This document shows positions 3,057-45,618 of a stretch of DNA of 58,578 bases, one piece after another; the stretch's first letter is position 1; each line of letters opens with the position of its first letter. The stretch is from a virus (lineage: Duplodnaviria; Caudoviricetes): positions 1 through 58,578 of IMG/VR virus record IMGVR_UViG_3300026521_000072, one strand, 5' to 3'. The notes below the pieces were generated by a model. It searched no databases and was not told where the DNA came from. It worked only from the letters and a program-made list of their open reading frames with translations. A program made the translations under genes and the position numbers.

Positions 3057-3065
3057 TGGTATACT
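3057..3065 (+). promoter_or_regulatory. extended -10 promoter for intron HNH-AP2 ORF
   Basis: TGGTATACT followed by RBS AAGGAG at 3076-3081. Confidence 0.5.
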
Positions 3066-3086
3066 CTTATATATAAAGGAGACCAT

Positions 3087-25694: not shown

Positions 25695-25871
25695 ATGGAA
25701 ACATTAAAAGAATATAAACAACTAATTGAAAAAGTACTAGAGGAGATTGAAGCATACGAGAATAAGCCTACAAAAGCATGTTCACTTCGTATTCGTAAAT
25801 TATCTAATCAAATCGGTAAAGATGGTGTACAATTACGTGCAACATTAGTTCAAGCTGATAAGGCTTCTTAA
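25695..25871 (+). CDS. Hc1-like (histone H1-like) small protein, 58 aa
   Basis: read from sequence: ...YENKPTKACSLRIRKLSNQIGKDGVQLRATL; AAGGA RBS, TAATG coupled to nrdA. Confidence 0.6.
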   Translation: METLKEYKQLIEKVLEEIEAYENKPTKACSLRIRKLSNQIGKDGVQLRATLVQADKAS

Positions 25872-28111
25872 TGCAAAACATAACGGTTACAAAGGCTAAC
25901 GGCTCTACGGAACCGTTAGATATATCGAAAATCCATGCACATCTAACATCAGCTGCAGAAGGTAAGTATGACCATCTAATTAGTTCAATCGAACTAGCAG
26001 CTAAGTTACATTTTTATGATAAAATCCCTACTTCATACATTAATGATGTGATTATTAAAACAGCTAAAGATATGGCAACTATAAGAGATATAGGGTATGA
26101 TGTTATTGCTAAAAACCTTATGATATATAAAATCTACAAACAAGTAGGTAACTCTTCTACTCCTAGCAGTTTACTAGAAATCTTAACAGAAGGCTGTAAT
26201 AAAGGAGTTTATTCACCGGCATTACTTAATTCTTTCACTTTAGATGAACTTAATAAACTTGATAATGAGATAGACTATACTCGTGATTTTAATTTCACTT
26301 CTGCTGGTATTGAGTTCTTACAGTTACGCTATATGAAACAATTTAATAGTAAACTAATCGAACTACCACAACATATGTTTATGCTTATAGCTATGGATAT
26401 ATTTCGTGATTATCATAAAAATCGTATACATTATATCAAATTAATGTATCACAAATTATCAACTTTTGAAATTACACTACCTTCACCAGAAATGGACGCA
26501 CTACGTACAGTATCAACTGACTATGCATCATGTGTATTGATAAAGACAGGAGATTCACTTGATTCATGGGTAGAAGCTTCTAAATCATTAGTTTTACATA
26601 CAGCAGCATCTGCAGGTATAGGTAACGACATATCAGCTATAGCATCTATTGGTGACTTAGTTAAGAAGGGTTCTATTACACATGGAGGTAAAATACCTGT
26701 GTTAAAGTCTATTGATGCAGATATTCAAAAAGCAGTACAAAACGGTAGACGTGGTTCTGCAACACCTTTCATCAATTTCTTTGACCCAGAAATAATAACT
26801 ATATTAGCTATTAAATCACCCCGTACATCTATAGAAAAACGTATTAATGACCTTTCTTATGGTATAAAATTACGTGAATTAGTATATGAACGTGCAGCAA
26901 ATGATGATGTGATTACATTATTTTCTACTCGTGATTCTTTAGAACTTTATGAAATATTTCATTCAGGTACGGCAGAAGAATTTAGCACATTATATAAACA
27001 ATGTGAAGAACAATTTCCATCAAATCAACGTATTTCAGCAAAGAAACTTATAGAATTACTGAATACAGAAATGTTTGAAAATAGTGCTTATTATGTACTA
27101 AATATAGATGAAGTAAATGCTAACTCACCTTATACAGAAACAATATATCAATCAAATATCTGTATGGAGGAAGTATCACCTACTAAAGATCTATCTTGTA
27201 AACGTACACATGAACCTGATATAGCTATTTGTGTACTAGGTAACGTAAATCAAGGTAAAGTATCGATAGATAAGTTACCTGAAACTGTAGATATATTACT
27301 GCGTGCACAAACACATATTATGACACGACAAAAACACCCTACTACTCAAGCACAAGCTTATGTAGAACAGTATAGAAGTGTAGGTTTAGGTTTTTCTAAC
27401 CATGCTTATTGGTTAGCTAAACAAAATCTTAAATACGGTGCTAAAGAAGCTCTTGAACTACATGATGAGTGGATGGAGTATTTTCAGTACTACTTAATAA
27501 AGTCATCTACTGACATTGCTGAAGAAACATCACCAGCACCTAGATTTTTCACACATTCAACATACGCTAAGGGTGTTATGCCTATAAACCGTTATAATAA
27601 ACATGTAGACGAATTAGTTCCATTTAAAATTAGACTAGATTGGGAAAGTTTAAAACATCGTGTACAAACAGTAGGTATGGCTAACGTAGCTTTATCAATG
27701 GTACCTCCAGCTGAATCTTCAGCAGGACCTTCTAACCAAACTAACGGATTAGAACCTGTTAAAGATTTCATTACATTTAAAGAAAATAAAACATCTGTAA
27801 TGAAACAGTTTGCTCCAGAAGTGAATAAGCTAGCTCATAGATATGAATTAGCTTACGAAACTAAAGATATGACTAAACGTTATTTAATGCATGTAGCAGT
27901 AACACAAAAATGGATTGATAAATCAATTAGTACAAATAGATTTTACAATCCTGAGCTGTTTAAAAACTCTAAGGTACCTCTTAAATTATTAATTGAAGAT
28001 ATGTATTTTGCTAAATATTATGGAGTAAAGTCTTTATACTACACTAATACTAGAGTACCAGATGTAGAAGATCAAAAACAACAATGTGAAGGAGGCGGCT
28101 GTGAAGTATAG
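25871..28111 (+). CDS. nrdA: ribonucleotide reductase class Ia alpha subunit
   Basis: ATP cone, ASCV, SNICME, ICVLG, PPAESS, SLYY, C-terminal CEGGGC. Confidence 0.95.
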   Translation: MQNITVTKANGSTEPLDISKIHAHLTSAAEGKYDHLISSIELAAKLHFYDKIPTSYINDVIIKTAKDMATIRDIGYDVIAKNLMIYKIYKQVGNSSTPSSLLEILTEGCNKGVYSPALLNSFTLDELNKLDNEIDYTRDFNFTSAGIEFLQLRYMKQFNSKLIELPQHMFMLIAMDIFRDYHKNRIHYIKLMYHKLSTFEITLPSPEMDALRTVSTDYASCVLIKTGDSLDSWVEASKSLVLHTAASAGIGNDISAIASIGDLVKKGSITHGGKIPVLKSIDADIQKAVQNGRRGSATPFINFFDPEIITILAIKSPRTSIEKRINDLSYGIKLRELVYERAANDDVITLFSTRDSLELYEIFHSGTAEEFSTLYKQCEEQFPSNQRISAKKLIELLNTEMFENSAYYVLNIDEVNANSPYTETIYQSNICMEEVSPTKDLSCKRTHEPDIAICVLGNVNQGKVSIDKLPETVDILLRAQTHIMTRQKHPTTQAQAYVEQYRSVGLGFSNHAYWLAKQNLKYGAKEALELHDEWMEYFQYYLIKSSTDIAEETSPAPRFFTHSTYAKGVMPINRYNKHVDELVPFKIRLDWESLKHRVQTVGMANVALSMVPPAESSAGPSNQTNGLEPVKDFITFKENKTSVMKQFAPEVNKLAHRYELAYETKDMTKRYLMHVAVTQKWIDKSISTNRFYNPELFKNSKVPLKLLIEDMYFAKYYGVKSLYYTNTRVPDVEDQKQQCEGGGCEV

Positions 28112-29204
28112 TACATTTTCAACCGAAAATATTGAGTTTACAAATGAGCCATTATTCTTAGGTAAAGGGAGAAATGTAGCTAGATTGGATTTACCTATTG
28201 AGCAAGAAATACAAAAGCGTACAGATAAGGCGTTAGGACTTATGTGGTTTAAAACTGACTTCTCTTACAAAAAAGATGGTGAAGATTACGCAGTAATGGC
28301 ACAACCACTTAAAACACTATTTGATAAAAACCTTAAATTTCAAACAGTAGGAGATAGCGTAGCAGCTAGGTCTGTAAGTGAAGTATTTGGCCCTATAACT
28401 ACCAACCCTCAATTAGAGGAATGGTGGTTTCAGCATGCTTTTTATGAAGGAGTTATTCATTCACCTACATATGCAGAAATCCTTAAAAGTTTACCAGTAG
28501 ATGCTAAAGAAGTATTCGATGATATTATTATAAATGACCATATTATTGAACGTGGATTAGCAATAGCTAACGTATTTGATGATACTATAGCATGGAATAG
28601 TAAAATGGTGCTACAAACTTCAGATTATGATGAGTACAGTCATATGAAATCAATCGCACTTTCACTGTATGCTTTAAACATTCTTGAAGCTGTGTTCTTT
28701 AAATCTTCATTTGTAACTACTTTTGCATTCGCTGAAAACCATATAATGGAAAGCTCAGCTAAAGCTATTACTAAAATTTCTATGGATGAAATTATGCATT
28801 ATCAGATGACAGTGTATGTAATTAAACGTCTTAAAACTGATACTGAGTGGGCAGCAGCATTTGCAGAAGTAGAAGACCAAGCAGTAGCTATGTATCAACA
28901 AGCATATAACACAGATTTAGAGTGGATTGATTATTGTTATTCTGAGAATGAACATGTACCGTTATTAGGTGTAAGTAATTCTATTCTTAAACAGTATGTA
29001 CAATATAATATGTATAATGTAATGACAAATGTTAAATTACCTCATATAGTAAAACGTACTAAAAATCCTTGTATTTGGGTTGATAAGTACTCTAATTTAT
29101 CTAATGTACAAGTAGCTATGAAAGAGACAGATAGTGCTAACTACTTATTAGGTAAATTAGATACAGAAGCTTCTAATGAAGACTATAGAAAGTTTTTATT
29201 ATGA
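28101..29204 (+). CDS. nrdB: ribonucleotide reductase class Ia beta subunit
   Basis: FQTVGDS, EGVIHSPTY, LEAVFFKSSF, DEIMH; GTG start after GGAGG. Confidence 0.93.
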   Translation: MKYSTFSTENIEFTNEPLFLGKGRNVARLDLPIEQEIQKRTDKALGLMWFKTDFSYKKDGEDYAVMAQPLKTLFDKNLKFQTVGDSVAARSVSEVFGPITTNPQLEEWWFQHAFYEGVIHSPTYAEILKSLPVDAKEVFDDIIINDHIIERGLAIANVFDDTIAWNSKMVLQTSDYDEYSHMKSIALSLYALNILEAVFFKSSFVTTFAFAENHIMESSAKAITKISMDEIMHYQMTVYVIKRLKTDTEWAAAFAEVEDQAVAMYQQAYNTDLEWIDYCYSENEHVPLLGVSNSILKQYVQYNMYNVMTNVKLPHIVKRTKNPCIWVDKYSNLSNVQVAMKETDSANYLLGKLDTEASNEDYRKFLL

Positions 29205-31239: not shown

Positions 31240-34200
31240 TTAGTACCCATCTATCAAGTGTGTAATCGGTACATCAGCTGCACCACTTATCAAACTTTCA
31301 GTATTATCTAACCAACTAAACGGATTTAATCTCTTACCCCATCTAAATATAATTGAACTATCTAACACATCATTAGGGATATCTAAGTATTTTTTACCTA
31401 AGCTATCCATCACTACTTTAGTAGTATTAGTTTTTAATAGTTTTAGATTAACTCTTTGTATATTAGCAAAATATTTCCAGAACGCTTCTGGCCCCATCTT
31501 ATCTAACCATTGAACTACTTTACTATTTATTACTTTACTGTAGTTTATAAAATTATCAGTAACTTCTCTTAAAGCTTTTTCCTTACTTACTCCATTTTCT
31601 ATAGCATTCCAATAAATAGCAGCTCTAAAGTGGAAATCACTTTCTTGTGTTACATGCAACAATAGCTGTCCTAATGCACTTTTCCTAGTTAAAAACGCAG
31701 TATTTACTACTTCTTTTATAGTCTTATTGTTACCAATTACGCTATCTTCTAACTTCTTTTCTACCCAATTTACAATTTTATTACTATCTTCTTCTAAATT
31801 TATATCTTCAACAATTGTCTGATACAACCCTTCTTCTAATAAAGGTATTAATGGATTATCTTTTATTTCAGCAGCTAAATCAGCTAGTTTTTTACGCACT
31901 TTATCTCGTTCAGCACCTTCAAGCATATCTACTTTACGTTCTAAGTTTCTACGTTTTTTCTCATCTTCTTTCCACTTATCTAAGTTTCGTTTACTTATCA
32001 ATAAATACTTAACTGCTTTATTTATAGGCATACCACTAAACCACAGAAATTTAGCATTACTCACTATATTACCTATTATAGTTCTAGGTAATTTTATAAC
32101 TACCATACTTTTAGCAATAGCTATAATATCTGCAAAGCCTTGTTCAATTAGTCTAACTTTATGTTGAATACTCAGAGGCAGTCTTTTTATAAGCGAAGAG
32201 TTACTAACCATTGCCTGGTTATACCCAAACAATTGTTTCATTAAATCTTTACGTATATATATTTCTCTACGCTCTTTAGGGTTTTTCACACCTTTAGCTA
32301 GATCTTCTTTTTTATTCATCTCAACTATATATGCTCTAGTTTTAGGAGGTAGCAAACCCCATAACTCCTCTCCTTCTGTTTTAGGCATAAATCGTGCAAC
32401 ATCAGCTTCTCCTACTTTACCTTTTAACTCTGCAGTCGTAAGCCTATTTTCAGTAGCATACACTCTTATAAATTCATTATCTAATAACTCTTTAGCTAAA
32501 TTTTCATCTTTGATACTTTTTAAAGTTTCTTTAGTATCTCGTATTATAATATCAATTAACTCCTCATTATTCGTGTCAGTATACACTTGTGTATCTTTTT
32601 GCCCAAAGCTTCTAGCTAATAAGTCTGTACCTCTTTTTTCTAAATCTATATGGGTCTCCATCTCAGATAGAGTAGGCTCATACCTAAAGTCAATTACCCT
32701 CCCATACTCATTATATATAGGGTACATATTATTATAGTTACTATGCTTAGCTGCATGTCTAATTGCTTCACGAATTTTATTGTTTATGCGTTCATTAGAT
32801 AAATGCTCGTTCTCTACTCTTACTTTTTCACTTAATGTCAAACCCTTAATAGTTAATCTTTGCAAACCTATTGCACCATCAACTCTTTTAGTTAACCCCA
32901 CATTGTCATTTACGTACAAACCATACAGCATTTTACCAGTATCTCCACTATCCTTTCTCATAGTACGAATTAGTCTATAACCTAGATTTTCCATTTTATT
33001 ACTAGTAGCTTTATCAAATGGAGCAAATATTAACTCTTTACTATAGTCGGTATTCTCCTTCATTTGTCCTTTAACCATTTCCTGTAACTTACCATTAAGC
33101 TCCCAATCACTTTTAGTAGCTACTTGTACACCTTTACTGTTTACTAAATAGTTTGTAACACCTTCTACATCTAAGTCTATTAGCTCTACCATACGCTCTT
33201 TATACTCAGAGTCTATGTCCTTTAAAGCGTATAATGTAATCAGTCTATCAATCATATTTTCAATCTTAACTACGTTATACTCTGCAACTAACTCTCCTCC
33301 GTCTGGAAACGCTAGGACACTACCAAAGTTTCTAGCGATATTATGAGCATTGCTGCGTAATCCTTTTTTAGTAAGCATGTACTTAGCTACACTTTTAGCA
33401 TTACGTACCATAGCATTACCCAGTACGTAGTTGCCATGTTTAATAGATTTTATACTTTTTTCTAATTTATTTATTTCTTTATCTAGTATATTACTATCTG
33501 TTAAGTATTTTCTTAACACTTTAGCATCGGTACTAACGGCTTGAAAGTCTGTACGCATAATAACTCTGTTTAAAGCGTGGTTGTATTTTAAGTTTTTATT
33601 AGCGTACATGTCTATGTTCTTAAACCCTGTTTGAATATCTCTTAAAGCTCCTTTGAAATGCATATCTCTCATACGGTCTAAATGACTTTTGAATTTCATA
33701 GTTATATCTGTTATCTGTACTAAAGTTTTTCTACCTGCCGTAAAATCCGCTATTAAGTCTTTTAAGAACTCATAGTACTTACCATACATTTTTTTAAGTA
33801 GATAATCTAATTGAATTCTGATTTTTAAGTACTCATCACTGTTATAGTCACCTATAATTGTATAGAGTCTAGTTATAGCTGGAAACATTTTAGCAATATG
33901 CCATGTCTTACCTAGCACACCACTATTACGAGCAAGTTCTGCTTCTTTATTTATGTACGTTAACAGTTTATGGACTCTAGTTAGCTCTGCTTCTTTATAC
34001 TTATGTTTATCTGTTTTATTATCTATAACACTAAAACGCTCTAGTACATTATCCACAACCTCTTTTACCGCTTTATCTACTTCTTTAGATACTTTATCTA
34101 AACCTTCATTAAACTTTTCGTCAATAACTATACCGATGTGTTCTTTAGCTTTATTGCCGTATTTGTTATTAACTTCTCCAAGTGCTATACTTAACCTTAG

Positions 34201-35418
34201 TAGCTCAGTCTCTATGTCTTTACCACGATTTCTCATGTGCGTTAAATCAAACACTAATTTATTCAATTTGTTTAATAGACCATAGAAAGTTTTACTGAGC
34301 CAAGAAGCACTGTCAGGTACTTTTATTTTTCTGTATTCTAATGGGGTGTTTTGCAGAGCTTTTTTTACATGCTTGTTAGTTAAACCATAAACTATAAATT
34401 CTTGTAAACGTCTATCAGCATCTTTATTTGTAAAATCATCTAACTTTCCGGTAAATATGTAATCATACATACTTTTTGCTTTAGCGGTTTCTTCTTTAGT
34501 GTAAGGGCCTTCTCCTTCAGGTAGCAAATCTTTGTAAGTCATTCTACTTTTAGCTACTGTATAAAGTCTTCGTAAATCATCCTTTACATCTTGCCCCAGC
34601 ACACCAAGCGATTTATGAAACAGTACATCTAAGTATGCATGTGTAATTTCATGTACTAACGCTTCCTCGTTACCCATTAGAAATCTATTATTCGCTTTTT
34701 CTGCTAGGTCACTTGGAAGTATACGTACCTTACTCCCTTTTACATTCGGATTGAAGGATGCTGCAGGCTCTGATAGTACATTAAGCATACTCTTGCTTAC
34801 ATCTATTTTTAAGGCACCAATCTCTTTAACTAGTCTATACATTCTCTTTGTAAGTTTTCGTAGATGTTCTGTATGCTCAGTATCCTGTACTACATTAGGA
34901 GCTTTCTCGTCTATACTTACCATCTCAGCATGTATTTGTTTTAAGTTACCACTCATAACGTTTTCACTGCTACCAAACATCTTGTTCATAGCATCTTCGT
35001 CCATATCAACGTTAAATAATGTATCTAAGTCGTCTTCGTGTCTAGGAGAGTTTTTAATAGCATTTTCTATTACATCAGACTGTACGTTACCTACAACTCT
35101 ACTACCAACTTCTTTAAAGTGTAAATCGATGTCACCATCAACAGTGTAAAATGTTATATTCCCTTTAGCATCAATATTGACTCTATCTATAAGTGTGGAT
35201 TGTCTATCAGAATTACCATTTTCATAGTATTCTACACTACCACTACCTAAACGCATGTCTATATTGATAGCTCTGTTGTGTAGTACAATAGCTTCTCTTC
35301 CTAGAGCATCAAGTTCTTTATCTGAGGTTTGTGGGTATTCCTTTCTAAGATTCTGCTTAACTTCTTTTAAATCTTCATTTGTAAGCATTAAACCCCTAGC
35401 ATATGCAGTACATTTCAT
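31240..35418 (-). CDS. virion RNAP subunit C (N4 vRNAP C-terminal-like, zincin motif)
   Basis: HEITH, QEFIVYGLTN, VVIK...NIVSN, QESDF...R, FINY resemble the N4 gp50 C-terminal region; single Cys at residue 3. Confidence 0.75.
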   Translation of the reverse strand: MKCTAYARGLMLTNEDLKEVKQNLRKEYPQTSDKELDALGREAIVLHNRAINIDMRLGSGSVEYYENGNSDRQSTLIDRVNIDAKGNITFYTVDGDIDLHFKEVGSRVVGNVQSDVIENAIKNSPRHEDDLDTLFNVDMDEDAMNKMFGSSENVMSGNLKQIHAEMVSIDEKAPNVVQDTEHTEHLRKLTKRMYRLVKEIGALKIDVSKSMLNVLSEPAASFNPNVKGSKVRILPSDLAEKANNRFLMGNEEALVHEITHAYLDVLFHKSLGVLGQDVKDDLRRLYTVAKSRMTYKDLLPEGEGPYTKEETAKAKSMYDYIFTGKLDDFTNKDADRRLQEFIVYGLTNKHVKKALQNTPLEYRKIKVPDSASWLSKTFYGLLNKLNKLVFDLTHMRNRGKDIETELLRLSIALGEVNNKYGNKAKEHIGIVIDEKFNEGLDKVSKEVDKAVKEVVDNVLERFSVIDNKTDKHKYKEAELTRVHKLLTYINKEAELARNSGVLGKTWHIAKMFPAITRLYTIIGDYNSDEYLKIRIQLDYLLKKMYGKYYEFLKDLIADFTAGRKTLVQITDITMKFKSHLDRMRDMHFKGALRDIQTGFKNIDMYANKNLKYNHALNRVIMRTDFQAVSTDAKVLRKYLTDSNILDKEINKLEKSIKSIKHGNYVLGNAMVRNAKSVAKYMLTKKGLRSNAHNIARNFGSVLAFPDGGELVAEYNVVKIENMIDRLITLYALKDIDSEYKERMVELIDLDVEGVTNYLVNSKGVQVATKSDWELNGKLQEMVKGQMKENTDYSKELIFAPFDKATSNKMENLGYRLIRTMRKDSGDTGKMLYGLYVNDNVGLTKRVDGAIGLQRLTIKGLTLSEKVRVENEHLSNERINNKIREAIRHAAKHSNYNNMYPIYNEYGRVIDFRYEPTLSEMETHIDLEKRGTDLLARSFGQKDTQVYTDTNNEELIDIIIRDTKETLKSIKDENLAKELLDNEFIRVYATENRLTTAELKGKVGEADVARFMPKTEGEELWGLLPPKTRAYIVEMNKKEDLAKGVKNPKERREIYIRKDLMKQLFGYNQAMVSNSSLIKRLPLSIQHKVRLIEQGFADIIAIAKSMVVIKLPRTIIGNIVSNAKFLWFSGMPINKAVKYLLISKRNLDKWKEDEKKRRNLERKVDMLEGAERDKVRKKLADLAAEIKDNPLIPLLEEGLYQTIVEDINLEEDSNKIVNWVEKKLEDSVIGNNKTIKEVVNTAFLTRKSALGQLLLHVTQESDFHFRAAIYWNAIENGVSKEKALREVTDNFINYSKVINSKVVQWLDKMGPEAFWKYFANIQRVNLKLLKTNTTKVVMDSLGKKYLDIPNDVLDSSIIFRWGKRLNPFSWLDNTESLISGAADVPITHLIDGY

Positions 35419-35420
35419 TG

Positions 35421-38400
35421 TTATCCTTTACACTTTGTGTTGCTGTTATCTATAACAGTCTTTGTTGCTATTATACCTGTTTCTAGCATAGAATCATCTG
35501 AATTGCTAGAACTATTCTCTACTCGTCTAATCATTATAATCTGGTCTCCAGTATTGCTTATCACTTCAAACCCATATTTACTGTACCAACTTATTAGTTT
35601 CTCTTCATTGGTAGTATCGTCCATAGGAAGCACCTCTAACAGTATATCTTCATTACCGTACTCATTAATTACACGTCCCATGACAGCATCAGCATAACCT
35701 AATCCTCTCTCATTTGAATGTATCATGTTAAGTGTGCGGTATACCTTAGTCTTATCTACATCGTCACCTAAGTAATCATTCCAGTTCAGCATACCGTTTA
35801 TCTTAGCCTTACCTAAGCTAGCATAAGCAACAACTTTATCGTTTTTATACAACTCCACACGTTTTACATTTCTATTTTTATTATTTGGGTCAACAACTAA
35901 CTCTCGTTCTTTTATTTGAGTTTCTAGTGCATCTTCTACTATACTATCTACAGCCTTCACTACGTAGCGAGTATCTACACTCCACAGTTTACCTAACACT
36001 TTCTTTATAGTATTCAGCACGTTGTTTACACTTATGGACTCATTTTGTGGGAACTGTTTAATAAACGCTCTACGTACACTAGGTTCACTACTTAGTACAG
36101 CTACTAACTCAGCTACCTGAGTAAACTCATCCTTTCTACTAAGCACATAGTCTAGTCTTTGACGAAGGATGTTACCCTCTATATCATGTCCAGGGTCAAA
36201 GTCTTTTAAACTCTCTAAACTTTTAGCTAAATACTTATATTGTTTTCTGTGTTTACCGTCTTGTAACCATTTATATGTAATTGCATGTTTAATCTCATGT
36301 GCTACATAAACAGCTCTATCTTTCGGATTAGCTTCTGCTACTATAGTTATGCTATTATTCTCTGGGTCGTACATAAACTCTTCACCAAATTTGATTTTAA
36401 TGCCATATTTCTGTATATACTGGTCATTTAGCTTATCAATCTGCTTAGCTTCTTCATTACTAATCAGCACTTCTGGTAGATAATCATCAGCAGCTTTTAA
36501 ATTTTGCGTGATTTTAAGTTTAGTATTGTCGAGTTTTCTAGTTATACTTTGTATTACATTTTCACTGGTAGTTTTTGTTTCGTATTTAGTAGGTTCGTAC
36601 TCATACTTAGCACTTACTTTATTGCCGTTCTTATCTAGCGTTTCAGCATAGGCATGTTCTACGTACAGTGTCTTGCTAAACAACTTCTCTCTATTAGTTT
36701 CAGATAGTTTTTCAATCCTACTCAGATCAGTTATATATTTCTTAATTTGGTCTGCATACTTTAACTTGCTGCCTGGTTTGCTATACTCCTCATTCAACTC
36801 TTTTAGTATATCTTCTAGCACACCATCTTCTAGCCTACTGTTAGTAAACGTCTTAACCACTGATTGCATAATTTCATGTACTAAGTGATAGTCTTTATTT
36901 AAGTTAATCCAGTGTTTGTTATAGTCTTTAGTACCTTCTATAAACTCATCTATAGAGAAATAGTTAGCATCATGCACTCCGAGTGCTACTCTACTTTTTA
37001 GTACTTCAGCTTGCACACTACCATCAAAGAAGTGTATAGGTACAACTGCACCTGAACTGTATGCCTCAACTAACTTATACAACTCTATGGCACCATGTGT
37101 AAGCCTATTACCGCTACTTTTAGTTCTTAAGCCTGGGCTAGCAATATTACCAAGCAACTCAACGTCACCCTCTTTAGTAGACACCCTCTGACGTTTAGCT
37201 ATTAGAAGTTTAGAAGTTATACCGTCATCAGTCTTAAGCACAGAGTTGAGTACTGGTAGCACATAGGACATTTCCTGTACCAAGGCTTGCATTTCTTTTT
37301 TATTTATAGGAGGTACTAGTCGTGAAGCGCGCTTATACTCAGGGCTATCTTCTTTAACAGCATCATCTACTAATTTTAGCACTTTAGTTTTATGTAGTTC
37401 TTTTATTCTCCTGTCTAGTAATTTTCTAGCAATCCTAAACTGTACTGTAAATAGCTCATTTGTAGTTCTAGTTAGTTCTATGAAGGGTTTATACTTCTTT
37501 GTTAGTACTACTTTTAAAGCGTTACCGAATGTAGGCTGTCCTTCTAATTCTTCATCTGCAGCATATACATAACCGATTAGTGTTGTACGCTCATCAGGGC
37601 TCAGTTGAAACTTACGTAAAGCTTCTAAATTTTTCGGCAAATCTCGCTTCTTGTCAGACTGTAGTACATGCAGAATTTTATTTATTCTATTATACTCATC
37701 ACCCAATTCTCGCTCTATTTCGTAGTCAGGATCTTTCGGGTTGTAGTCAGGACTAGAGTAGTAATTTTTAGCTTTTATGTAGTAGGTATTTATCATGTTA
37801 TATAAATTATCTACCGTTAAGTTAGCTGTAGATTGTATGATTGAATTAATGGCACTACCGTAGTTGAGTACCATAAACGGGTTTTTCATAAAATTACGAC
37901 TAAATCCTCTATCTTCATCATACTTAGGGTCTATAAGTTTTAACACCTCTAAAGGTACATCATAGCTATTTTTACGCAATTCTTTTGTTAGTTCTTTGGC
38001 AGGGTCCTCATAAGAATCTAACGCATCTGTATCATCATTTCTAGCACCATAACTTTTAGAAGCCTCTGTAAACACTCCCATTTTCTCTAGTTCTTTTATT
38101 TGAGCATCTATATTGGAGCCGAATAGGATTGGGATTTGCATGTTTTTAATTGCATACCCAGACGTAATAGCGTCTGTCTCTATACTAGATTCAGTGTAGT
38201 AACTCTCTGCAGTACCTCTACCAGTATAATTCCAGTTTAATAGCTCACTGATACCACTCAATAGATGTTCTGGCTCTCCTAAATTGTATTTACCTTCTTT
38301 AGCTACTTCTAGTAGTATTTTTGCATGCTCTGCATAAGTTTCACTATTTTGGTACTCTTCTAATGTAGCGTATTGTGTAGCTTCGTCTATATCATAACTA

Positions 38401-39914
38401 CTTGATAATTTATCTATAATAATATCTATTTCATTGTTATTAGCTACTAATAGTTTTTCTGCTGTTTGTTTATCTACGCTGACACCGAACGATTGTCCAA
38501 GCATAAGTTTAAATCCGTTTTCGTTACTTTTAGTGACTTCAACTTTTCTATTATACACTGCATACCGGTGTAGTTTCTTATCTTGCCAATTTAGTTTGTT
38601 ACTATCTATCATAAATCTATTATTAGTAATTACTTTCCATCTTGCATACATATCTTTATCTAAACCAAATTCATCGTAAGCTTCTTGTAAGTAGTTGATA
38701 GAATCAGCCAGCATATTGTTCTTACCACGTACAGCTTCTAGCTTAACATCTAACACATCTTCTTCATTTTTATAGCCTAACAATTCTAGTAGTACACCAT
38801 CCTTATGAAGCTTTTGCACAAGCTTGTTAAACCCATTCTTCATACGATACGGCGTACTGCTTTGTTTTATTACAGCATCTTTGTGAGCAGAACTGACTAC
38901 ATCCCCTAACTCACCACTCGGACCTTCATTAACTATTTCACTTCGTTTAGGTACTGCATCACTTTTAGTTGTAAATACTCCATATTTAGTCGGTTCGCCT
39001 ACAACACTGTCATACAATTTTCCTGCACTATCTTTTACAGTCTTGCTACTAACTAGTACTTCTACCCCACCTGCAATGACATACAACGACATATCACCGT
39101 TACGTCCTACTTTGCGTTTATTGTTAAAACTAACTACTTTTATGCCTTTCCTAGTATCATCTATATCAGTCTTTTTTACTGTAAGCATACCAACATTTTC
39201 TAGACCAGCTAAACTAAGCATACCAAGTTCAGCTTTCAATTTAGCTTCTAGTACATGATTGTTGATAAGGTTTGTATCACTGTCAGCTTTAATACCTAGC
39301 AACTTATACGCTTTACTACCTATGGTATTTATACTTCTATTATATAACGTATCAAATCCGTTCAACTTTTCGTACATTTCTGTAGTAATAGTGTCTTTTT
39401 TATCTATTCCTAGTATAGCTCGAACTGTATCAGGATGTCGATGCTCTGCTAAGTCAGATTCAGCATCATTGACTAGCCAATCAGTAGTAGCTATACTTAC
39501 AGCTTTAGCAACTTCATCATTTAGTGTGTAGTGTGTAATCTTACCATACTCATTTTTATGTGCTTTATACAGCAGTCCAATAATACTTTGCCAACCTTCA
39601 GTTATATTATTATTGCCTGTGTACATAGGGTCAATGAGAAAATTATCATAAGTATCTGCTTGAACAACACCTTCTTTAGTTACATAGTTTTCTATCACAT
39701 TTTTTAATGTAAGTGCTATAGTGTCTTGAATTTGAGTTTCTACTAGCTTAGTGGTAGCTTTAGGGTTCGCTTTAAAGTATGTACTAAGTGTTGCATTCAG
39801 TGCTGTGTGATTTCTTATATCGTGTATAACCTTACCAACACCATTTTCATTTTTCAGTTTATATAGTGCTGGTAATACTTTTGATACATCTTTTAACGCT
39901 TCAGTACATTTCAT
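35421..39914 (-). CDS. virion RNA polymerase catalytic subunit B (T7/N4 single-subunit family) with zincin and GNAT-like tail
   Basis: NNRFM...WQDKKLHR, motif A ETDAITSG, motif B RNFMKNPFMVLNYGS, motif C GVHDA; HEIKH; RGLGYA...WYSKYGF. Confidence 0.88.
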   Translation of the reverse strand: MKCTEALKDVSKVLPALYKLKNENGVGKVIHDIRNHTALNATLSTYFKANPKATTKLVETQIQDTIALTLKNVIENYVTKEGVVQADTYDNFLIDPMYTGNNNITEGWQSIIGLLYKAHKNEYGKITHYTLNDEVAKAVSIATTDWLVNDAESDLAEHRHPDTVRAILGIDKKDTITTEMYEKLNGFDTLYNRSINTIGSKAYKLLGIKADSDTNLINNHVLEAKLKAELGMLSLAGLENVGMLTVKKTDIDDTRKGIKVVSFNNKRKVGRNGDMSLYVIAGGVEVLVSSKTVKDSAGKLYDSVVGEPTKYGVFTTKSDAVPKRSEIVNEGPSGELGDVVSSAHKDAVIKQSSTPYRMKNGFNKLVQKLHKDGVLLELLGYKNEEDVLDVKLEAVRGKNNMLADSINYLQEAYDEFGLDKDMYARWKVITNNRFMIDSNKLNWQDKKLHRYAVYNRKVEVTKSNENGFKLMLGQSFGVSVDKQTAEKLLVANNNEIDIIIDKLSSSYDIDEATQYATLEEYQNSETYAEHAKILLEVAKEGKYNLGEPEHLLSGISELLNWNYTGRGTAESYYTESSIETDAITSGYAIKNMQIPILFGSNIDAQIKELEKMGVFTEASKSYGARNDDTDALDSYEDPAKELTKELRKNSYDVPLEVLKLIDPKYDEDRGFSRNFMKNPFMVLNYGSAINSIIQSTANLTVDNLYNMINTYYIKAKNYYSSPDYNPKDPDYEIERELGDEYNRINKILHVLQSDKKRDLPKNLEALRKFQLSPDERTTLIGYVYAADEELEGQPTFGNALKVVLTKKYKPFIELTRTTNELFTVQFRIARKLLDRRIKELHKTKVLKLVDDAVKEDSPEYKRASRLVPPINKKEMQALVQEMSYVLPVLNSVLKTDDGITSKLLIAKRQRVSTKEGDVELLGNIASPGLRTKSSGNRLTHGAIELYKLVEAYSSGAVVPIHFFDGSVQAEVLKSRVALGVHDANYFSIDEFIEGTKDYNKHWINLNKDYHLVHEIMQSVVKTFTNSRLEDGVLEDILKELNEEYSKPGSKLKYADQIKKYITDLSRIEKLSETNREKLFSKTLYVEHAYAETLDKNGNKVSAKYEYEPTKYETKTTSENVIQSITRKLDNTKLKITQNLKAADDYLPEVLISNEEAKQIDKLNDQYIQKYGIKIKFGEEFMYDPENNSITIVAEANPKDRAVYVAHEIKHAITYKWLQDGKHRKQYKYLAKSLESLKDFDPGHDIEGNILRQRLDYVLSRKDEFTQVAELVAVLSSEPSVRRAFIKQFPQNESISVNNVLNTIKKVLGKLWSVDTRYVVKAVDSIVEDALETQIKERELVVDPNNKNRNVKRVELYKNDKVVAYASLGKAKINGMLNWNDYLGDDVDKTKVYRTLNMIHSNERGLGYADAVMGRVINEYGNEDILLEVLPMDDTTNEEKLISWYSKYGFEVISNTGDQIIMIRRVENSSSNSDDSMLETGIIATKTVIDNSNTKCKG

Positions 39915-42900
39915 TATTTACATCCTATTATTTTTTTCAATTTACTAATTATTCTTACATCTAGAGTTTTTAGGCTAGCGGCTATTAAATCTTGTATAAT
40001 TTGCTCATTGCTAATTTCTAAAACTTTTTCTGCTGTTATTGTAGCAGTACTACCCTTAGTTTTACTTAACATCTCCTGTAAGTATTCTAGTTTTTTTGCA
40101 GTAGTTTTTACTTTAGAGAGCCCATTATCTAAGTCATGTACACCTGCTTCTGTAAGTTCTCTATATAACTCATCTATCTTATTCTGGTTATCTAACTCTT
40201 CAATATCTTCGCTACTCATATCTTTATAGCTAGACGTATCAGGCTCGGTAATTGGTTTTTCTGCTTCAGTATTATGTGTAGATTTTTCTATAACATCTTC
40301 AGCAGATTTGTTTTCTATCGGCTCTACGTCACTACTCTTACCACTATCAGGATATTTTAGGTTGTTTATTGATACTGTACCATTTCCAGCTTTTGCTATG
40401 TATTTAGTACCTTTTAGTACTTTATTTACCCTATGCGTTAACCTACTCTTACCGCTCCTAGTAGTAAATTCTGGGTATAACTCTACATATCTATTTAGCA
40501 CCTTATCAACAGCTGCTAAGTATTTAACTACGGCTGTTTGATTACTACCATAACTGTTAATATCCTCATACAATTTTTGTACGTTCTCTGCTAGTAAGTT
40601 TACTTCTTCGAGGAGTTCTGCTTCTTCTCTAGTATACTTTGTAGTTTCTCTCCCTGACTCTTTAACCTTAGTAGTTCTGCTTTTATCGCTTTTAGTTCTT
40701 TCAGTCTGTTCATTTTTTTCTTCTCCTTGTTGTTTTTCATCTACAGTAAACTCTGACTGTGTATCAGTACTACTATCTAGTTTGATATTACCGGCACCAT
40801 CAAACTTATTATTAGTTACTATATCGTATACCTTTTGAAATAGTTCTACTTCTTTTTCTATCTGTTCTATTCCCACATTGGACTGTGGTCCGTGATATTT
40901 ATATACAGCAGGACTACCATCAGAATACTGCCCGTATTGTGCTTCTATAGTACCATCACCTTTTTTCCACTTATTGGCTAGCACTCTTGCAGCTTCAAGC
41001 TTCTGCTCTTGTGTTCTCATAAAGTTTTCTAGCCTACTTTGTAGTGCTTCTTTATTTTTGTAATTTGGGTCTAGCAGAGCCTGTACATACTGATATAAAC
41101 CCATTCTATACTTGCCATAAGTGTCGAAGCCCCCGTACACTTTCATTGTTTGTGTGTCTTTATTTATAGCTTTTTTACCTACATCTAGTGCTACCCCTCT
41201 TTCATCAGCTAGAGGTACCACACCACTTTCAGCTATTAGTTTTTCTACTTGCAGTGCTTTCTTTTTATCAAGCATTTCAGCGGTAGGTTCAGTAGTAGAG
41301 GATAGTTCTTTATCCACCTCAGCTAGTTCTTTTTCTATCTCTTTTATTGGTCTGTTATTATATACAGCACTACTACTATTACGGAATGGTTCTAAATCAT
41401 TAGCTATCGCGCCTATTGTGTTAACTAAATCTGCCTTTAACACTTCTAATTTCGACAATCCCTCTGCTGTCTGCTTTTGCATACTTGCTAGCTCTTCAGC
41501 AGTATAAGGAGTACCATCCTCTTTTATAACAACTTCACCAGTTAGTAGTTTTTCTTCATTATCTTTTAACTGCCTCTCAGCTGCTAGTACTTTTTGCAAC
41601 TCGGCTTCATGTGTCTTAAGATTTCTCTCATATACATCTTTAACTAGAGCTTCATCGTGTCTACTAAGTACACCTTCCTCTCCATTAGTGATTGCTTGTA
41701 CATGCTTGCTAATGTCATTATCAGATAACTTTGAAGCATAAATAGAATCTTTAACTTCATCAGGCATTTCATCTAAATGTTTTTTAATTTCGCTAACATC
41801 TAGTGTGTCAATTTCTTGTAGATTTTTGTATGCGTTATCTATGTCTGCAGCAGAGGTATCAGTTGTGCCAGCATCACTACTACTATCACTTACAACTTTC
41901 GCTTTAACATTACCTATAGCTTCTTTAACTGTATCGTTCTCTTTAGCTGCAGTTTTTATAGTGTTAGCGACAGTTCCAGTTCCTTTAGCACCTGTACCCA
42001 TAACAGCACCGAGGAATGCGCTAAACTTATTTGTATCAGACGTTGCTATGTCTTTTATATTTTTAGTGTTTTCATTTTGTGTAGCCCAGTCTTGACTTAC
42101 CCCTTCTAGATACTCTTGTAAACCTTCCTCTCCACCAGACTTTAGAATGCTTATAGCCTTATTTACAACTCTTTTAGTTGGCTTGAATACTTCTTTAGCA
42201 CCACTCTTAACTACAAACTTTTCTAAATTCAGAACAGCTAGTTGTTCAAGGAATGTCTCAGCTAACTTACTCTTACTCATTCCTTTATTGTTATTCTCTC
42301 TATACTGGTCGTTATATTCTTTAGTTCTGATAGCTGCTAGCCCTAATGTACCTCCTGGTAACATAATAGCTGCCATCTCTCCTGACGATTGTGCAAATAC
42401 TTCTGGAAGCATTTTAAGAGATGTTATTAAAGCTTTTGTGTAGTTACCTTCTTTGAATGCTTTTTCTGCTGTAACCATCTTATCATTATAGTCTTTAATA
42501 GTCTCATCTTTAACCCCAGCATACTTCATAGCAGTGTTTAGGTCTTGTAATTCTTTACTTTTATCGGCAGTACCAAATAAACCTCTATCGGTATCTACGA
42601 CTTTGTCATAACCTTCAACTATATCTCCTAGTACTGTACCTTTAATACTATCTTTTACTGCATTAGTACCTCTAGCCCATATATTGTACAGAGAACCTTG
42701 CACCTCATCTACTAACTCTCCTACATACCCGTCTTTATCACTAGTTTGCATTTCTTTATCGAAATCATCTAGTATAGAACTAACTGTGTTACTTTCTTCT
42801 TCTATATAAGTATTGCCAGGTCTTAGTGCTTGTTCCGCTGTTAAGTCGTGCTTACCGCTAATATCACGCAGAAATTGTACTCTTCTGTTATGGCTACTTA

Positions 42901-43522
42901 TATCTGTGTCAGCTACTTGAACTGGAATGTTTAACGGATTTTGCGAATCACCTAGCATAAGCGGATTGTTAACTACATCGTACTCAATAGGCCCTGGAGT
43001 CCATTCAGTACCGTCAGGGTTTTTAGGTCTACCCATAGCAGTATACAAAGCGTCAAGTTTATCTAACTCACCTCTTGTATAAACTACTTTTTCTTTATCC
43101 GCAAATGGTAAGTCTTCACTTACCCCTATTTGCCTAGCTTGTCTGTTTATACGTTCTTTGTGGTGTGTATCTCCTGCCCATGGAGTACCATCAGTGTTAA
43201 GGTGTGCTACTTCTCTAGAGTCTACCCATCCTGCAGGCCCTTCTATATTAGGAGCTCCGGCTAGTCTAGAATCAGCAGTTTCTCCTTGTATACGGAACGA
43301 ATCACCGTCTATAACTGACTGCAGTTGTGCTTTTCTGAACTGCACATTACTACTTAGCACGTCATTAGCTATCTGTTCACCTAAATTATTGTTGCCGTTT
43401 AATCTTTGTAGTTTTTCTTGTGTTTTGTTTTGTAGGTTCTGTATTTTAGTAGTTGTTGGTGCTGTTGTGCTATTTATCGCATCAGCAACACCGAGGTCAC
43501 CAGCTAAGTCTAAATCAGTCAT
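39914..43522 (-). CDS. virion RNAP subunit A / large ejection protein (N4 vRNAP N-terminal-like)
   Basis: position upstream of RNAP, EEGLQEYLEG motif, Gly/Ala-rich hydrophobic segments, single Cys at penultimate residue. Confidence 0.65.
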   Translation of the reverse strand: MTDLDLAGDLGVADAINSTTAPTTTKIQNLQNKTQEKLQRLNGNNNLGEQIANDVLSSNVQFRKAQLQSVIDGDSFRIQGETADSRLAGAPNIEGPAGWVDSREVAHLNTDGTPWAGDTHHKERINRQARQIGVSEDLPFADKEKVVYTRGELDKLDALYTAMGRPKNPDGTEWTPGPIEYDVVNNPLMLGDSQNPLNIPVQVADTDISSHNRRVQFLRDISGKHDLTAEQALRPGNTYIEEESNTVSSILDDFDKEMQTSDKDGYVGELVDEVQGSLYNIWARGTNAVKDSIKGTVLGDIVEGYDKVVDTDRGLFGTADKSKELQDLNTAMKYAGVKDETIKDYNDKMVTAEKAFKEGNYTKALITSLKMLPEVFAQSSGEMAAIMLPGGTLGLAAIRTKEYNDQYRENNNKGMSKSKLAETFLEQLAVLNLEKFVVKSGAKEVFKPTKRVVNKAISILKSGGEEGLQEYLEGVSQDWATQNENTKNIKDIATSDTNKFSAFLGAVMGTGAKGTGTVANTIKTAAKENDTVKEAIGNVKAKVVSDSSSDAGTTDTSAADIDNAYKNLQEIDTLDVSEIKKHLDEMPDEVKDSIYASKLSDNDISKHVQAITNGEEGVLSRHDEALVKDVYERNLKTHEAELQKVLAAERQLKDNEEKLLTGEVVIKEDGTPYTAEELASMQKQTAEGLSKLEVLKADLVNTIGAIANDLEPFRNSSSAVYNNRPIKEIEKELAEVDKELSSTTEPTAEMLDKKKALQVEKLIAESGVVPLADERGVALDVGKKAINKDTQTMKVYGGFDTYGKYRMGLYQYVQALLDPNYKNKEALQSRLENFMRTQEQKLEAARVLANKWKKGDGTIEAQYGQYSDGSPAVYKYHGPQSNVGIEQIEKEVELFQKVYDIVTNNKFDGAGNIKLDSSTDTQSEFTVDEKQQGEEKNEQTERTKSDKSRTTKVKESGRETTKYTREEAELLEEVNLLAENVQKLYEDINSYGSNQTAVVKYLAAVDKVLNRYVELYPEFTTRSGKSRLTHRVNKVLKGTKYIAKAGNGTVSINNLKYPDSGKSSDVEPIENKSAEDVIEKSTHNTEAEKPITEPDTSSYKDMSSEDIEELDNQNKIDELYRELTEAGVHDLDNGLSKVKTTAKKLEYLQEMLSKTKGSTATITAEKVLEISNEQIIQDLIAASLKTLDVRIISKLKKIIGCK

Positions 43523-43591: not shown

Positions 43592-45088
43592 CTACTCTAC
43601 ACCAAATAGTCTTTTTATCCAGTTATCAACTGCACGGCCTTGAGGTTCTTTATTTTTATTGTTGTACTGTTTTTTAGCTACTGTATAAGCGTGAATTGAC
43701 GGGTAGTCTTCTAAAGTCATACCAGGTCGGTATTCAGGCATCAGTACCTTTCTTGATACTTTTTTTGGTGCTTTTCTTGATACTTTTCTATTTTCTAGCT
43801 TTACACCTTTTTCCACACTTTCAGCAGGTTTTTCGTTTTTTACATTACGTGTACTAACTTTCTTATACGCACTGTGTTTCGGTGTGGACGGTCTACTGTC
43901 TATACCCAGTATGTCATCTAGTTCTTTGTCTGCAAACTTTCCTAGAGCTTCTCTACGTGAGTTTTCTATGTCAGCTGCTGTTAGCATACGTTTAGGTAGG
44001 TATTTTGAAGCATCTAGTTTTGTAAAGTCTTCACTCCCCTTAGTTGAGCTGCTATAACTACCAGTGGTATTTGTACCTCTACCAGCATATTGTTTAATTA
44101 GGTTTTTAGCTTTAGCTTTCCACTCGTCTACATCTTTTAACTCTAAGTCTGTACCCATACCGAACATCTTATTAGTATGCTCTACACTGGAGTGTAGTAG
44201 ATTACTAGCAACATCTGCAGGTACACCGGCTTGCTGCAATAAAGGTAATGTTCGTTGTATCACATCAGTACTTTCTGGGTTTTTATTTAATGCTCCATAA
44301 TAAGGATCAGTTAACAATTCTTTACTAAGCTGTGCATAACCACTAGCGTTTTTATCTCGCTTACTAGAACTCGCTTTTATACGACTACTCGCCACTTTCG
44401 CACTGTTACTTGCATTAGCTTTATCAATATCAAGTCTCATACTAGCATTTTTGTAAGCTAATTCATTTGCTTGTTTAGCTGCAGCAGTATTAGCGCTTGG
44501 TCTGTCTACTAAGTTTTTAGTTAACTCATCTGCTAATGTTAAAGCTTTATCAGCACTTATACCTTCAGCTCCTGCACGTTGTAGTATATCTTGCCTAGCT
44601 TCACTTTTACTCATAGTGTTACTATCAAATATATTTTGCAATCTAGCATTTTGTACATCAGCATCTTTACCGCCATACATCGCTTCATCGTATGCTTTAG
44701 CTATCTTATCTCCATCACCTTTTTCAGCATCCCAACCATTAGCTGCTATCTTTGCTTCTGCTTTTGCATTAGCTTTATTAAAGGCTTCAGCTATTCTATC
44801 TTGTTGGTTTTCCAATCCTGTACTATTACCTAGGTTAGGGTTCCAAGTGCTAAGCAAATCACGCATACTCTGCTGTTCAGTTTTACCTTCTTCGTAATCT
44901 TTTTGTTTTTGCTTAAACAGTAGTTCAGCACGTTCGTCTGCTTTTGCTTGTCTAGCTTGTTCAAACTGTAGAGCTTTAGCTTTATCTCGTGCTTCCATTA
45001 TACTACTAATACTAGTAGCTACCCGTTGTAAGCTTTCTGTAGGGTCTACTAATCTACCTGTGTTAAAGTCTAATTTAGGAGTACTCAT
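43592..45088 (-). CDS. putative internal virion/ejection protein
   Basis: Ala/Lys-rich, Cys-free, in the position of N4 gp51. Confidence 0.6.
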   Translation of the reverse strand: MSTPKLDFNTGRLVDPTESLQRVATSISSIMEARDKAKALQFEQARQAKADERAELLFKQKQKDYEEGKTEQQSMRDLLSTWNPNLGNSTGLENQQDRIAEAFNKANAKAEAKIAANGWDAEKGDGDKIAKAYDEAMYGGKDADVQNARLQNIFDSNTMSKSEARQDILQRAGAEGISADKALTLADELTKNLVDRPSANTAAAKQANELAYKNASMRLDIDKANASNSAKVASSRIKASSSKRDKNASGYAQLSKELLTDPYYGALNKNPESTDVIQRTLPLLQQAGVPADVASNLLHSSVEHTNKMFGMGTDLELKDVDEWKAKAKNLIKQYAGRGTNTTGSYSSSTKGSEDFTKLDASKYLPKRMLTAADIENSRREALGKFADKELDDILGIDSRPSTPKHSAYKKVSTRNVKNEKPAESVEKGVKLENRKVSRKAPKKVSRKVLMPEYRPGMTLEDYPSIHAYTVAKKQYNNKNKEPQGRAVDNWIKRLFGVE

Positions 45089-45102: not shown

Positions 45103-45618
45103 TTACGCTGTTGCAAATTTAGCGGCTAAACCGTTACTATTAACTACACCATCTTTAGCAGTACTAGCTGCTTTAGGGTTGAACACGTTTAGTATATGTT
45201 GATTATCTGCTCTAGTTTTACGCATAGCATAATCGTTATTAGCATACTGTTGATCCATCAATGCTCTTTGTTTATCTGCTGTTTTTTTGTTATCTAGGTA
45301 ACTCATAAGCCCTAAACCTAACTGTCCTACACCTAGTGCTAAACCACCTACACCACTCATACTAAATGGGTCACTCCCGCTAGTAGTATTACCACCACCG
45401 TTATATAATCCTTTTGATTGTAAGTCTGCAAAGTCTCCGCTATACATAGAATCTACATCAGACACACTCAGTTTGTTAAGGTCTATGCCATTATCAACCG
45501 CATAAGCTGCAAAATCAGGATTACTCAATGCACTAGCTGTATTACCGCTCCATGCTCTAATATTATTTAAATTTGTCGCTGCAGGGTCGACTATATTTGT
45601 TGTAGGTTGTGTCGCCAT
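45103..45618 (-). CDS. putative ejection protein (N4 gp52-like)
   Basis: GGLALGVGQLGLGLMSYL hydrophobic helix then coiled coil; Cys-free. Confidence 0.6.
   Translation of the reverse strand: MATQPTTNIVDPAATNLNNIRAWSGNTASALSNPDFAAYAVDNGIDLNKLSVSDVDSMYSGDFADLQSKGLYNGGGNTTSGSDPFSMSGVGGLALGVGQLGLGLMSYLDNKKTADKQRALMDQQYANNDYAMRKTRADNQHILNVFNPKAASTAKDGVVNSNGLAAKFATA

Follow-up and report, generated by a model that had tools for sequence, protein, structure and literature searches.

The 58,578-nucleotide (nt) stretch of tailed-virus DNA analysed here (Duplodnaviria; Caudoviricetes; IMG/VR record IMGVR_UViG_3300026521_000072, positions 1 to 58,578; hereafter, the window) encodes what is, by profile similarity, a virion RNA polymerase (vRNAP) of the coliphage N4 type split into three adjacent genes, which we call A, B and C. 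The only cysteines of the three proteins sit at the chain ends that face each other across the two gene junctions, and the same placement recurs at the junctions of related split vRNAPs and is absent from the ends of fused ones. Judging from these sequences and by analogy with a solved phage complex, the facing cysteines probably form inter-subunit disulfides in the virion and restore one threadable chain, a reading to which we assign a probability of roughly three in four.

Cysteines at the ends of split virion RNA polymerases

All three genes lie on the minus strand. Gene A (39914..43522) encodes 1202 amino acids (aa) and is the first link, equivalent by position to the N-terminal domain of N4 gp50; gene B (35421..39914) encodes 1497 aa, i.e., a T7-like single-subunit RNA polymerase domain (about residues 1-1158) and a C-terminal extension (residues 1151-1497); and gene C (31240..35418) encodes 1392 aa, the equivalent of the gp50 C-terminal domain (CTD). 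Translation and counting give exactly four cysteines in the 4091 aa of A, B and C, each encoded by a TGT codon: Cys1201 of A, the second-last residue (...IIGCK before the stop; 39920..39922), Cys3 of B in its MKCT start (39906..39908), Cys1495 of B, the third-last residue (...TKCKG before the stop; 35430..35432), and Cys3 of C, also in an MKCT start (35410..35412). The outer ends of the chain (the N-terminus of A and the C-terminus of C) carry none. A sequence-only reading of this DNA had already reported these open reading frame (ORF) lengths, codon coordinates and cysteine counts, and all of them agree with the ORF list, the translation and our count; its description of N4 gp50 as a cysteine-free chain of about 3500 aa is likewise borne out (gp50 of 3500 aa, no cysteine). 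For comparison, the 34 plus-strand ORFs of the window contain 86 cysteines in 8182 aa (1.05%) and the 15 other minus-strand ORFs 21 in 4658 aa (0.45%). At these rates, 34 or 18 cysteines would be expected in 4091 aa, and four or fewer have a probability of 1e-10 or 6e-5, respectively; random placement of four cysteines would put one into each of the 3-residue junction-facing ends with a probability of about 7e-12.

The reading frame shifts at both junctions: between A and B, the stop codon of A overlaps the ATG of B (TAATG), and two bases separate the stop of B from the ATG of C. To what extent such stops are genuine can be judged from contigs of four public sequencing runs, which were placed on positions 35200-40100 of the window. 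The contig of an independent study (X3; 18,315 nt) covers the whole stretch, and over 4.9 kb its differences are 198 substitutions and a single 3-nt insertion that keeps the frame; X2 agrees, and X4 covers parts of the stretch only. Among the differences listed, there is no other indel, no indel at the A/B junction and no difference of any kind at the B/C junction. Since the contigs of the independent study keep the same frames, the stops are real and not sequencing errors in one fused gene, a possibility that the sequence-only reading had raised against itself. The same holds for the cultured Alteromonas phage AD45, whose vRNAP is also encoded by two genes; according to the vRNAP section of its description, re-sequencing and PCR confirmed the stop, and gels showed both polypeptides (PMC3821669).

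B and C are members of the N4-type vRNAP family, in a split variant, based on their profile matches. B matches the PHROG family phrog_2206 ("virion RNA polymerase") with an E-value of 3e-76 over profile positions 1025-1959 of 3406, and C matches the same family at 2.8e-113, with its best stretch at positions 3028-3401, which agrees with the N4 vRNAP motifs that the sequence-only reading had noticed in both proteins. A profile of C-type subunits matches residues 2224-3446 of N4 gp50 (whole-sequence E-value 2.4e-69). A tblastn search with B found matches in annotated vRNAPs only, in 118 records of cultured N4-like phages at about 21% identity, and a search with C matched 426 records. Other searches were silent: the Pfam scan of A, B and C gave nothing above threshold, phmmer of B against PDB sequences gave one chance antibody match (E-value 0.78), the B region had no DNA match, near or distant, in the phage collection, and the B profile did not reach N4 gp50 with hmmsearch. 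A had no PHROG or Pfam match and is thus without detectable likeness to the N-terminal domain of N4 gp50. Its phmmer relatives, however, are located upstream of a B-type gene in two other split loci (L001 and L003), and it is from position and these relatives that A appears to be the N-terminal part of the chain.

The placement of the cysteines is conserved among the homologous proteins. A word-index search with B recovered 18 homologues at 26-47% identity: 14 are of split length and have Cys3 and a cysteine in the last 6 residues, with none elsewhere (P0016 has two near its end), three are longer A+B forms (2154-2515 aa) with one cysteine at the C-end, and one, short at its 5' side, has the C-end cysteine. 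Cys3 and Cys1495 of B are invariant in a 15-row alignment (A1), and Cys1201 of A likewise never varies across the 12 rows of an upstream-partner alignment (A2). A HMMER search of 1.84 billion representative proteins with residues 1-1190 of B then gave 279 hits, of which the best 150 were sorted by domain content using our own polymerase and CTD profiles, counting as terminal any cysteine among the first 6 or last 7 residues. Among these 150, the A+B forms without a CTD (n=49) all have a C-end cysteine (49/49), none at the N-end (0/49) and none internally, while the B+C forms without an N-part (n=7) have an N-end cysteine in 7/7 cases, in an M-x-C start, and a C-end cysteine in 0/7. Polymerase-only forms (n=37) have an N-end cysteine in 30/37 and a C-end cysteine in 35/37 cases, and partial proteins (n=24) in 4/24 and 18/24 cases, respectively. 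None of the 33 fused forms has a terminal cysteine, and three internal cysteines occur in two of them. Overall, the best 150 of the 279 hits contain 144 terminal vs. 7 internal cysteines in 317,593 residues. That fused homologues should lack the terminal cysteine was one of the checks named in the sequence-only reading, and it came out as predicted.

The positions are also narrow. The N-end cysteine is residue 3 in 34 of 41 cases, the C-end cysteine is last or second-last in 68 of 103, and all 24 C-type subunits have a cysteine at position 3-5 (two carry one further cysteine). In 30 of the 34 M-x-C starts, the second residue is a small one (S, A, G or T), so that the initiator methionine is probably removed. 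Of the 126 representatives whose polymerase domain is complete, 93 are split, in a sample that is biased toward the query. Four shorter proteins (P0093, P0094, P0098 and P0104; 781-848 aa) start with M-G-C, have a C-end cysteine and match the polymerase profile only from about position 336, i.e., over its latter two-thirds, which points to a further cysteine-flanked split inside the catalytic domain. A search for relatives of P0081 and P0094 whose loci could be viewed found none, and the contig of P0092 begins 1.85 kb upstream of its gene, so that no partner is in view.

At the level of gene junctions, facing cysteines are present on both sides in 36 of 36 cases, from 21 non-redundant loci that comprise the window, viral and metagenome contigs, and Alteromonas phage AD45-P4 (same-contig duplicates L017, L019, L021, L026, L028, L034 and L035, near-copies L023 and L032, and problem contigs L013 and L031 are left out of this count). 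The cysteine is kept as an amino acid, another check named beforehand: TGT (67) and TGC (8) codons are both used, the flanking residues are variable, and the intergenic distance ranges from -47 to +223 nt. Complete fused ORFs of 12 further loci contain no cysteine at all.

The rule extends to chains with more and other links than those of the window. There are three-part chains with a small middle module (L022; 2393, 360 and 1442 aa) and four-part chains (L024 with 1038, 1515, 374 and 1435 aa; L029 with 1102, 1460, 1239 and 1434 aa); a free-standing middle module is also found in the chain of L030, which hints at more than four links. The middle modules of all four loci have exactly two cysteines each, one per end. 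Residues 1151-1330 of B in the window, i.e., the module with an HExxH motif, share 39% identity with the 360-aa link that stands free in L022, and a superfamily 1 (SF1) helicase domain (AAA_30, E-value 9e-18; UvrD_C_2) constitutes part of the free, cysteine-capped 1239-aa link of L029 (13193-16912) and is peptide-fused to the polymerase subunit in L008 (9029-17494). Since the same modules are fused in some phages and free and cysteine-capped in others, the cysteines follow chain ends, not a homologous position. The content of these links suggests that extra enzymes travel in the ejected chain.

Partners need not be adjacent either. In lineages that are split at the boundary between the N-part and the polymerase alone, the partner lies 2-3 genes upstream and has a single cysteine near its C-end: Cys1412 of 1413 aa in L078 (where the downstream protein starts with MAC), Cys1309 of 1311 aa in L056, Cys1328 of 1331 aa in L073, and the second-last residue of 836-845 aa in L045, L050 and L057. 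In L045, L050, L057, L056 and L078, whole genes, some of them rich in cysteine, are inserted between the partners, and in L003 a cysteine-free ORF of 62 codons (10534-10722) lies between the A-type and the B-type gene.

Gene fission and fusion appear to have happened repeatedly. In a FastTree phylogeny of 126 polymerase domains (unrooted; 24 of the 150 representatives with a partial polymerase domain were omitted), the split state changes at least 7 times at the B/C boundary and 17 times at the A/B boundary, the latter being an upper-leaning figure as some polymerase-only entries may be truncated A+B calls. The most direct comparison is provided by P0087 and P0089, which have near-identical polymerase domains: P0087 is split and ends with ...DLKDC, P0089 is fused (3036 aa) and has no cysteine, and the two sequences part ways about 20 residues short of the P0087 C-terminus. 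The difference resembles a module swap, with the cysteine accompanying the split.

Proposed disulfide coupling and its alternatives

A mechanism consistent with these patterns would be the following. The three pieces, namely A as the N-terminal, envelope-spanning part, B with the polymerase and accessory modules, and C as the C-terminal domain, would be packed together after docking end to end inside the infected cell; with the virion in oxidising surroundings, each facing cysteine pair would then close, giving A-S-S-B-S-S-C. Such a chain would be nearly linear, with overhangs of a few residues in place of the flexible linkers of the one-piece enzyme, and could thread the tail and the envelope conduit as beads on a string, its clasped cysteines leaving no free thiols open to periplasmic oxidases. 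Once inside, the reducing cytoplasm could uncouple the pieces. Complex prediction lends weak support to the docking of the end of A with the start of B: residues 1003-1202 of A with residues 1-330 of B gave a median score of 0.55 (runs of 0.44, 0.55 and 0.71) vs. 0.00 for the best of three controls, with at least 53% of contacts in agreement between runs and a partner confidence (predicted local distance difference test, pLDDT) of at least 73. In the calibration, 58 of 80 solved complexes reached the mark, as did 2 of 110 mismatched pairs, and scores of 0.60 or under, the range into which this median falls, included 7 of the 80 solved complexes and both of the passing mismatches.

Several observations weigh against a disulfide-linked chain. 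The bond in split vRNAPs is argued from sequence and analogy; the cytoplasm in which virions assemble is reducing, which means that the bond can form only afterwards, and the docking that would have to precede it is itself a weakly supported prediction. The end motifs of different junctions look alike, and the choice of partner in chains with six cysteines is unexplained by the model. The gels of phage AD45 show separate bands of 270 and 175 kDa, and whether the samples were reduced is unstated in the part of the report that describes them (PMC3821669). The sequencing runs containing the window are labelled as hydrothermal vent metagenome, and conditions in that habitat are not oxidising throughout; the class of ribonucleotide reductase encoded in the window (below) and this habitat both bear on the exposure of the virion to oxidising conditions.

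Exceptions to the cysteine rule belong on the same side of the balance. L013 has a cysteine-less break inside the polymerase domain, on a contig with 9 N and overlapping frames, and the low-quality contig L031 has five such breaks of frameshift-like geometry, with overlapping open frames (35-110 nt), TTG or GTG starts, or long gaps. Both are probably artefacts (for L031, indel errors or decay), and L031 serves as an internal negative control, given that ATG starts and gaps of 1-2 nt mark its two cysteine-flanked junctions. In L074, the upstream partner ends in a cysteine and is followed by broken-frame pieces without one. Among the 37 polymerase-only representatives, the N-end cysteine is missing from seven (P0042, P0074, P0090, P0102, P0107, P0110 and P0128) and the C-end cysteine from two; some of these may be truncated gene calls. 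As for fused proteins, P0091 and P0123 have internal cysteines, the 4394-aa ORF of L052 (3353-16537) has five (residues 1599, 2171, 2695, 2814 and 3621) and is the only clear breach of cysteine avoidance among the complete fused ORFs examined, and the 3419-aa vRNAP of L015 (5606-15865) ends with ...SCDC, which holds its only two cysteines, with no partner ORF visible in the remaining 490 nt of the contig.

Four alternative explanations were considered. That the cysteine codons are a nucleotide-level signal, e.g., for translational coupling at TGTAAATAATGAAATGT, or that the stops are false and the three genes one, is an explanation we regard as already refuted. The upstream Gly-Cys codons (GGATGT) of the window and of its nearest relatives do coincide with a possible ribosome-binding site, and the excess of TGT (67 of 75) is as expected of AT-rich genomes; yet TGC occurs too, the neighbouring residues and gap lengths vary as described above, partner genes may be kilobases apart, and both the two frame shifts confirmed in an independent contig and the PCR-confirmed stop of AD45 speak against an artefact. 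A link of another chemical kind, i.e., a metal ion shared by the facing cysteines together with carboxylates (Cys-metal-Cys), or some other reversible thiol chemistry, would account for the facing arrangement equally and appears improbable to us for different reasons. The residue before the C-end cysteine is often acidic (D in 23 and E in 19 of 103 cases), and a metal is probably present in the chain given its two conserved HExxH motifs; however, each end offers a single cysteine with no conserved histidine adjoining, and the sole solved analogue, in cyanophage A4, is a disulfide according to the available text (PMC12002296).

The remaining two explanations retain the chemistry or the docking and change what is joined. 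Each terminal cysteine might bond with a like copy, giving A-A, B-B and C-C polymers, or with another virion protein that anchors the piece in the head. N4 virions reportedly contain 4 +/- 1 copies of the vRNAP (in the available text of PMC13434306), which would allow like ends to meet, and the cysteine-bearing end of the fused L015 protein, lacking a visible downstream partner, would suit an anchor. Neither version, however, would be expected to place cysteines in facing pairs at every one of the 36 junctions and to leave the outer ends bare (0/49 N-ends of A+B forms, 0/7 C-ends of B+C forms and 0/33 fused forms); an anchor would have no need to vanish on fusion, as in P0087 vs. P0089, and the phage A4 pair, as far as its description was available, is heterologous. 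We thus see little likelihood in like-copy or anchoring bonds. We give similarly poor odds to cysteines that link nothing and serve as a redox sensor, folding aid or processing site next to purely non-covalent docking. The predicted, if weak, docking of A with B would fit this explanation, and the small residue 2 of most M-x-C starts hints at a constraint on the mature N-end, but no such role explains at the same time the presence on both facing ends, the independence from domain identity and the loss on fusion. Disulfides between neighbouring pieces, which account for all three of these features, are the explanation that we prefer.

Domains of the split polymerase and its genome context

The polymerase domain of B carries three blocks (36963..38180, minus strand): ETDAITSGY (residues 579-587), RNFMKNPFMVLNYG (673-686) and HDAN (981-984). 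The first and third, and the pattern R..K.PFM..NYG in the second, are invariant columns across 15 homologues (alignment A1), and we take the three blocks to be motifs A, B and C of T7-like polymerases. The placement of the two junctions on the linkers of N4 gp50 derives from the PHROG profile coordinates and the C profile, and exact positions are not claimed.

The module fused at the end of B has an HExxH motif (HEIKH, residues 1206-1210; 36285..36299, minus strand); its H, E and H residues (H56, E57 and H60 of alignment A4) are invariant in that alignment. A second such motif lies near the start of C (HEITH, residues 256-260; 34639..34653, minus strand), in an HELxH block that is invariant in alignment A3. 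The two motifs may represent a duplicated zinc-binding or peptidase-like module. The AlphaFold2 model of the B extension has a mean pLDDT of 53.5, with values of 65-85 in its residues 1-138 alone, and Foldseek against the PDB returned no match at E <= 0.001, so that no fold is assigned; selecase (4qhi), a minimal metallopeptidase, ranked 23rd (E-value 0.27) for this low-confidence model. Toward its end, the extension (residues 1151-1497; 35424-36464, minus strand) has a weak likeness to GNAT acetyltransferases (Acetyltransf_7, E-values of 0.004-0.037, below the Pfam cut-off), and a clearer GNAT match was seen in one of 12 A-type partners (E-value 5e-5). The idea that the N-end of A (DGDSFR) might be nuclease-like was dropped, as none of 12 A-type proteins gave it Pfam support.

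The neighbourhood of the three genes resembles that of N4 gp50. Just upstream of A lies a cysteine-free ORF of 498 aa (43592..45088, minus strand), followed by one of 171 aa, also cysteine-free (45103..45618, minus strand); these may be the counterparts of N4 gp51 and gp52, respectively, by position alone, and neither has a PHROG match. Related loci have a cysteine-free ORF of 377-993 aa in the gp51-like place and small cysteine-free ORFs in the gp52-like place, and N4 gp51 (644 aa) and gp52 (150 aa) contain no cysteine, as is the case for gp50. The genome as a whole is N4-like, with a portal, a head protein, a DNA polymerase and a primase, all four of N4 type, plus a helicase. It also encodes subunits of a class I (oxygen-dependent type) ribonucleotide reductase (25871-29204, plus strand; phrog_84 and phrog_86). 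No terminal repeats and no tRNAs were found in the window.

Implications and known systems

How a protein of about 3500 residues exits through a channel of about 35 Å is described as an open question for N4-like phages (in the available text of PMC13434306), and the cysteine rule is relevant to it. The rule says that selection protects the continuity of the chain, with cuts gaining two cysteines and re-joins losing both, a pattern that is hard to account for unless the pieces travel as one thread. As such, the rule provides genetic support for the beads-on-a-string model of ejection. We further propose, tentatively and with somewhat less than even confidence, that podophage ejection systems make general use of terminal cysteine pairs as a modular coupling device, giving rise to disulfide-linked cargo trains, that the reducing cytoplasm uncouples them and frees the polymerase, and that the device arose repeatedly by fission and is convergent with that of phage A4. 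If this is true, ejected modules (polymerase, HExxH module, SF1 helicase, GNAT-like domain) would be either peptide-fused or "cysteine-clasped" to their neighbours, and arrival in the cell would be sensed chemically, with the polymerase freed, and perhaps activated, from membrane-bound and auto-inhibitory parts. If the bonds open in the cytoplasm, they would provide redox-timed release of an injected enzyme and a natural design for passing several proteins through one narrow channel. For annotators, the rule offers a simple test that tells true split vRNAP genes from frameshift errors.

Elements of this picture have been published before. The sequence-only reading knew of no description of such an arrangement, which stands in one respect: the open-access full texts and bioRxiv preprints searched gave no account of a facing cysteine pair at every vRNAP junction or its loss on fusion, nor of clasped chains of three or four modules or of pairing between non-adjacent partners. 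It does not stand in others, since cysteine avoidance in schitovirus ejection proteins, the split and the cysteines of AD45, and one end-to-end disulfide, in A4, are already in print.

With respect to N4 itself (Schitoviridae), the central T7-like polymerase and the C-terminal domain of gp50 are homologous to B and C, the operon has the same gene order (gp52-gp51-gp50, the small and medium cysteine-free ORFs coming first), and gp50, gp51 and gp52 avoid cysteine as the window proteins do. The difference is that gp50 is one chain with no cysteine, whereas the window has three chains with four cysteines, all terminal. The available text describes gp50 as a trio of globular units with flexible linkers between them (residues 907-1007 and 2102-2123), which is believed to traverse the tail like beads on a string (PMC13434306); in the window, the terminal cysteine pairs would take over from these two linkers. 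Avoidance of cysteine is common to the ejection proteins of N4-like phages, with gp71 homologues of 191 schitoviruses reported to contain 0.00075% cysteine (available part of PMC11445570).

Among cultured phages, Alteromonas phages vB_AmaP_AD45-P1 to P4 also have a split vRNAP, encoded by two genes (vRNAP section of PMC3821669). Translated, the 2481-aa protein has one cysteine, at 2479, and the 1409-aa protein one, at 4; hence, AD45 follows the same facing-cysteine rule, with a two-part chain (A+B and C) instead of the three parts of the window. In the available text, the authors (Garcia-Heredia et al. 2013) noted "two cysteins" in ORF127 and took them to mean that the protein is not injected, and the vRNAP section does not remark on their terminal, facing placement (PMC3821669); a clasped chain would reverse that inference. 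For the packing of split forms in the virion, the evidence is the pair of polypeptides seen on the AD45 gels (same section of PMC3821669). In the GenBank records of AD45-P4 (L004) and AD45-P1 (L036), the split vRNAP region is a misc_feature, "potential frameshift", with no CDS, and therefore both proteins are missing from protein databases built from these records.

Inter-subunit disulfides are compatible with cytoplasmic assembly in at least one other phage, crAss001, whose tail and portal-vertex proteins are described as carrying them (available text of PMC10172136). Those bonds stabilise fixed parts of the tail and capsid, and, unlike the proposed ones, are not at chain termini and join no ejected proteins. 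The best precedent is cyanophage A4, for which a cryo-EM study (PNAS 2025) reports, in the text available, a disulfide between Cys1715 of gp27 and Cys5 of gp26 in the packed ejection complex of virions; that text neither generalises the link nor treats it as replacing a peptide bond (PMC12002296). In the genome of Anabaena phage A-4L (L087; KF356198; 16766-25269, minus strand), gp27 (1717 aa) has Cys1715 and gp26 (1114 aa) has Cys5 as their sole cysteines, while gp29 has none and gp28 has two (1036 and 1039). The gp27-gp26 pair is thus encoded side by side, joined C-end to N-end and has the sole-cysteine placement of the window proteins, the difference being that A4, a member of the Saffermanviridae, has one link and the window a chain of three pieces. 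Gp26 to gp29 of A-4L have no match to the B and C profiles at E <= 10, and, as far as sequences can tell, the likeness is convergent. The rule described here for split vRNAPs may extend well beyond the N4-like phages.

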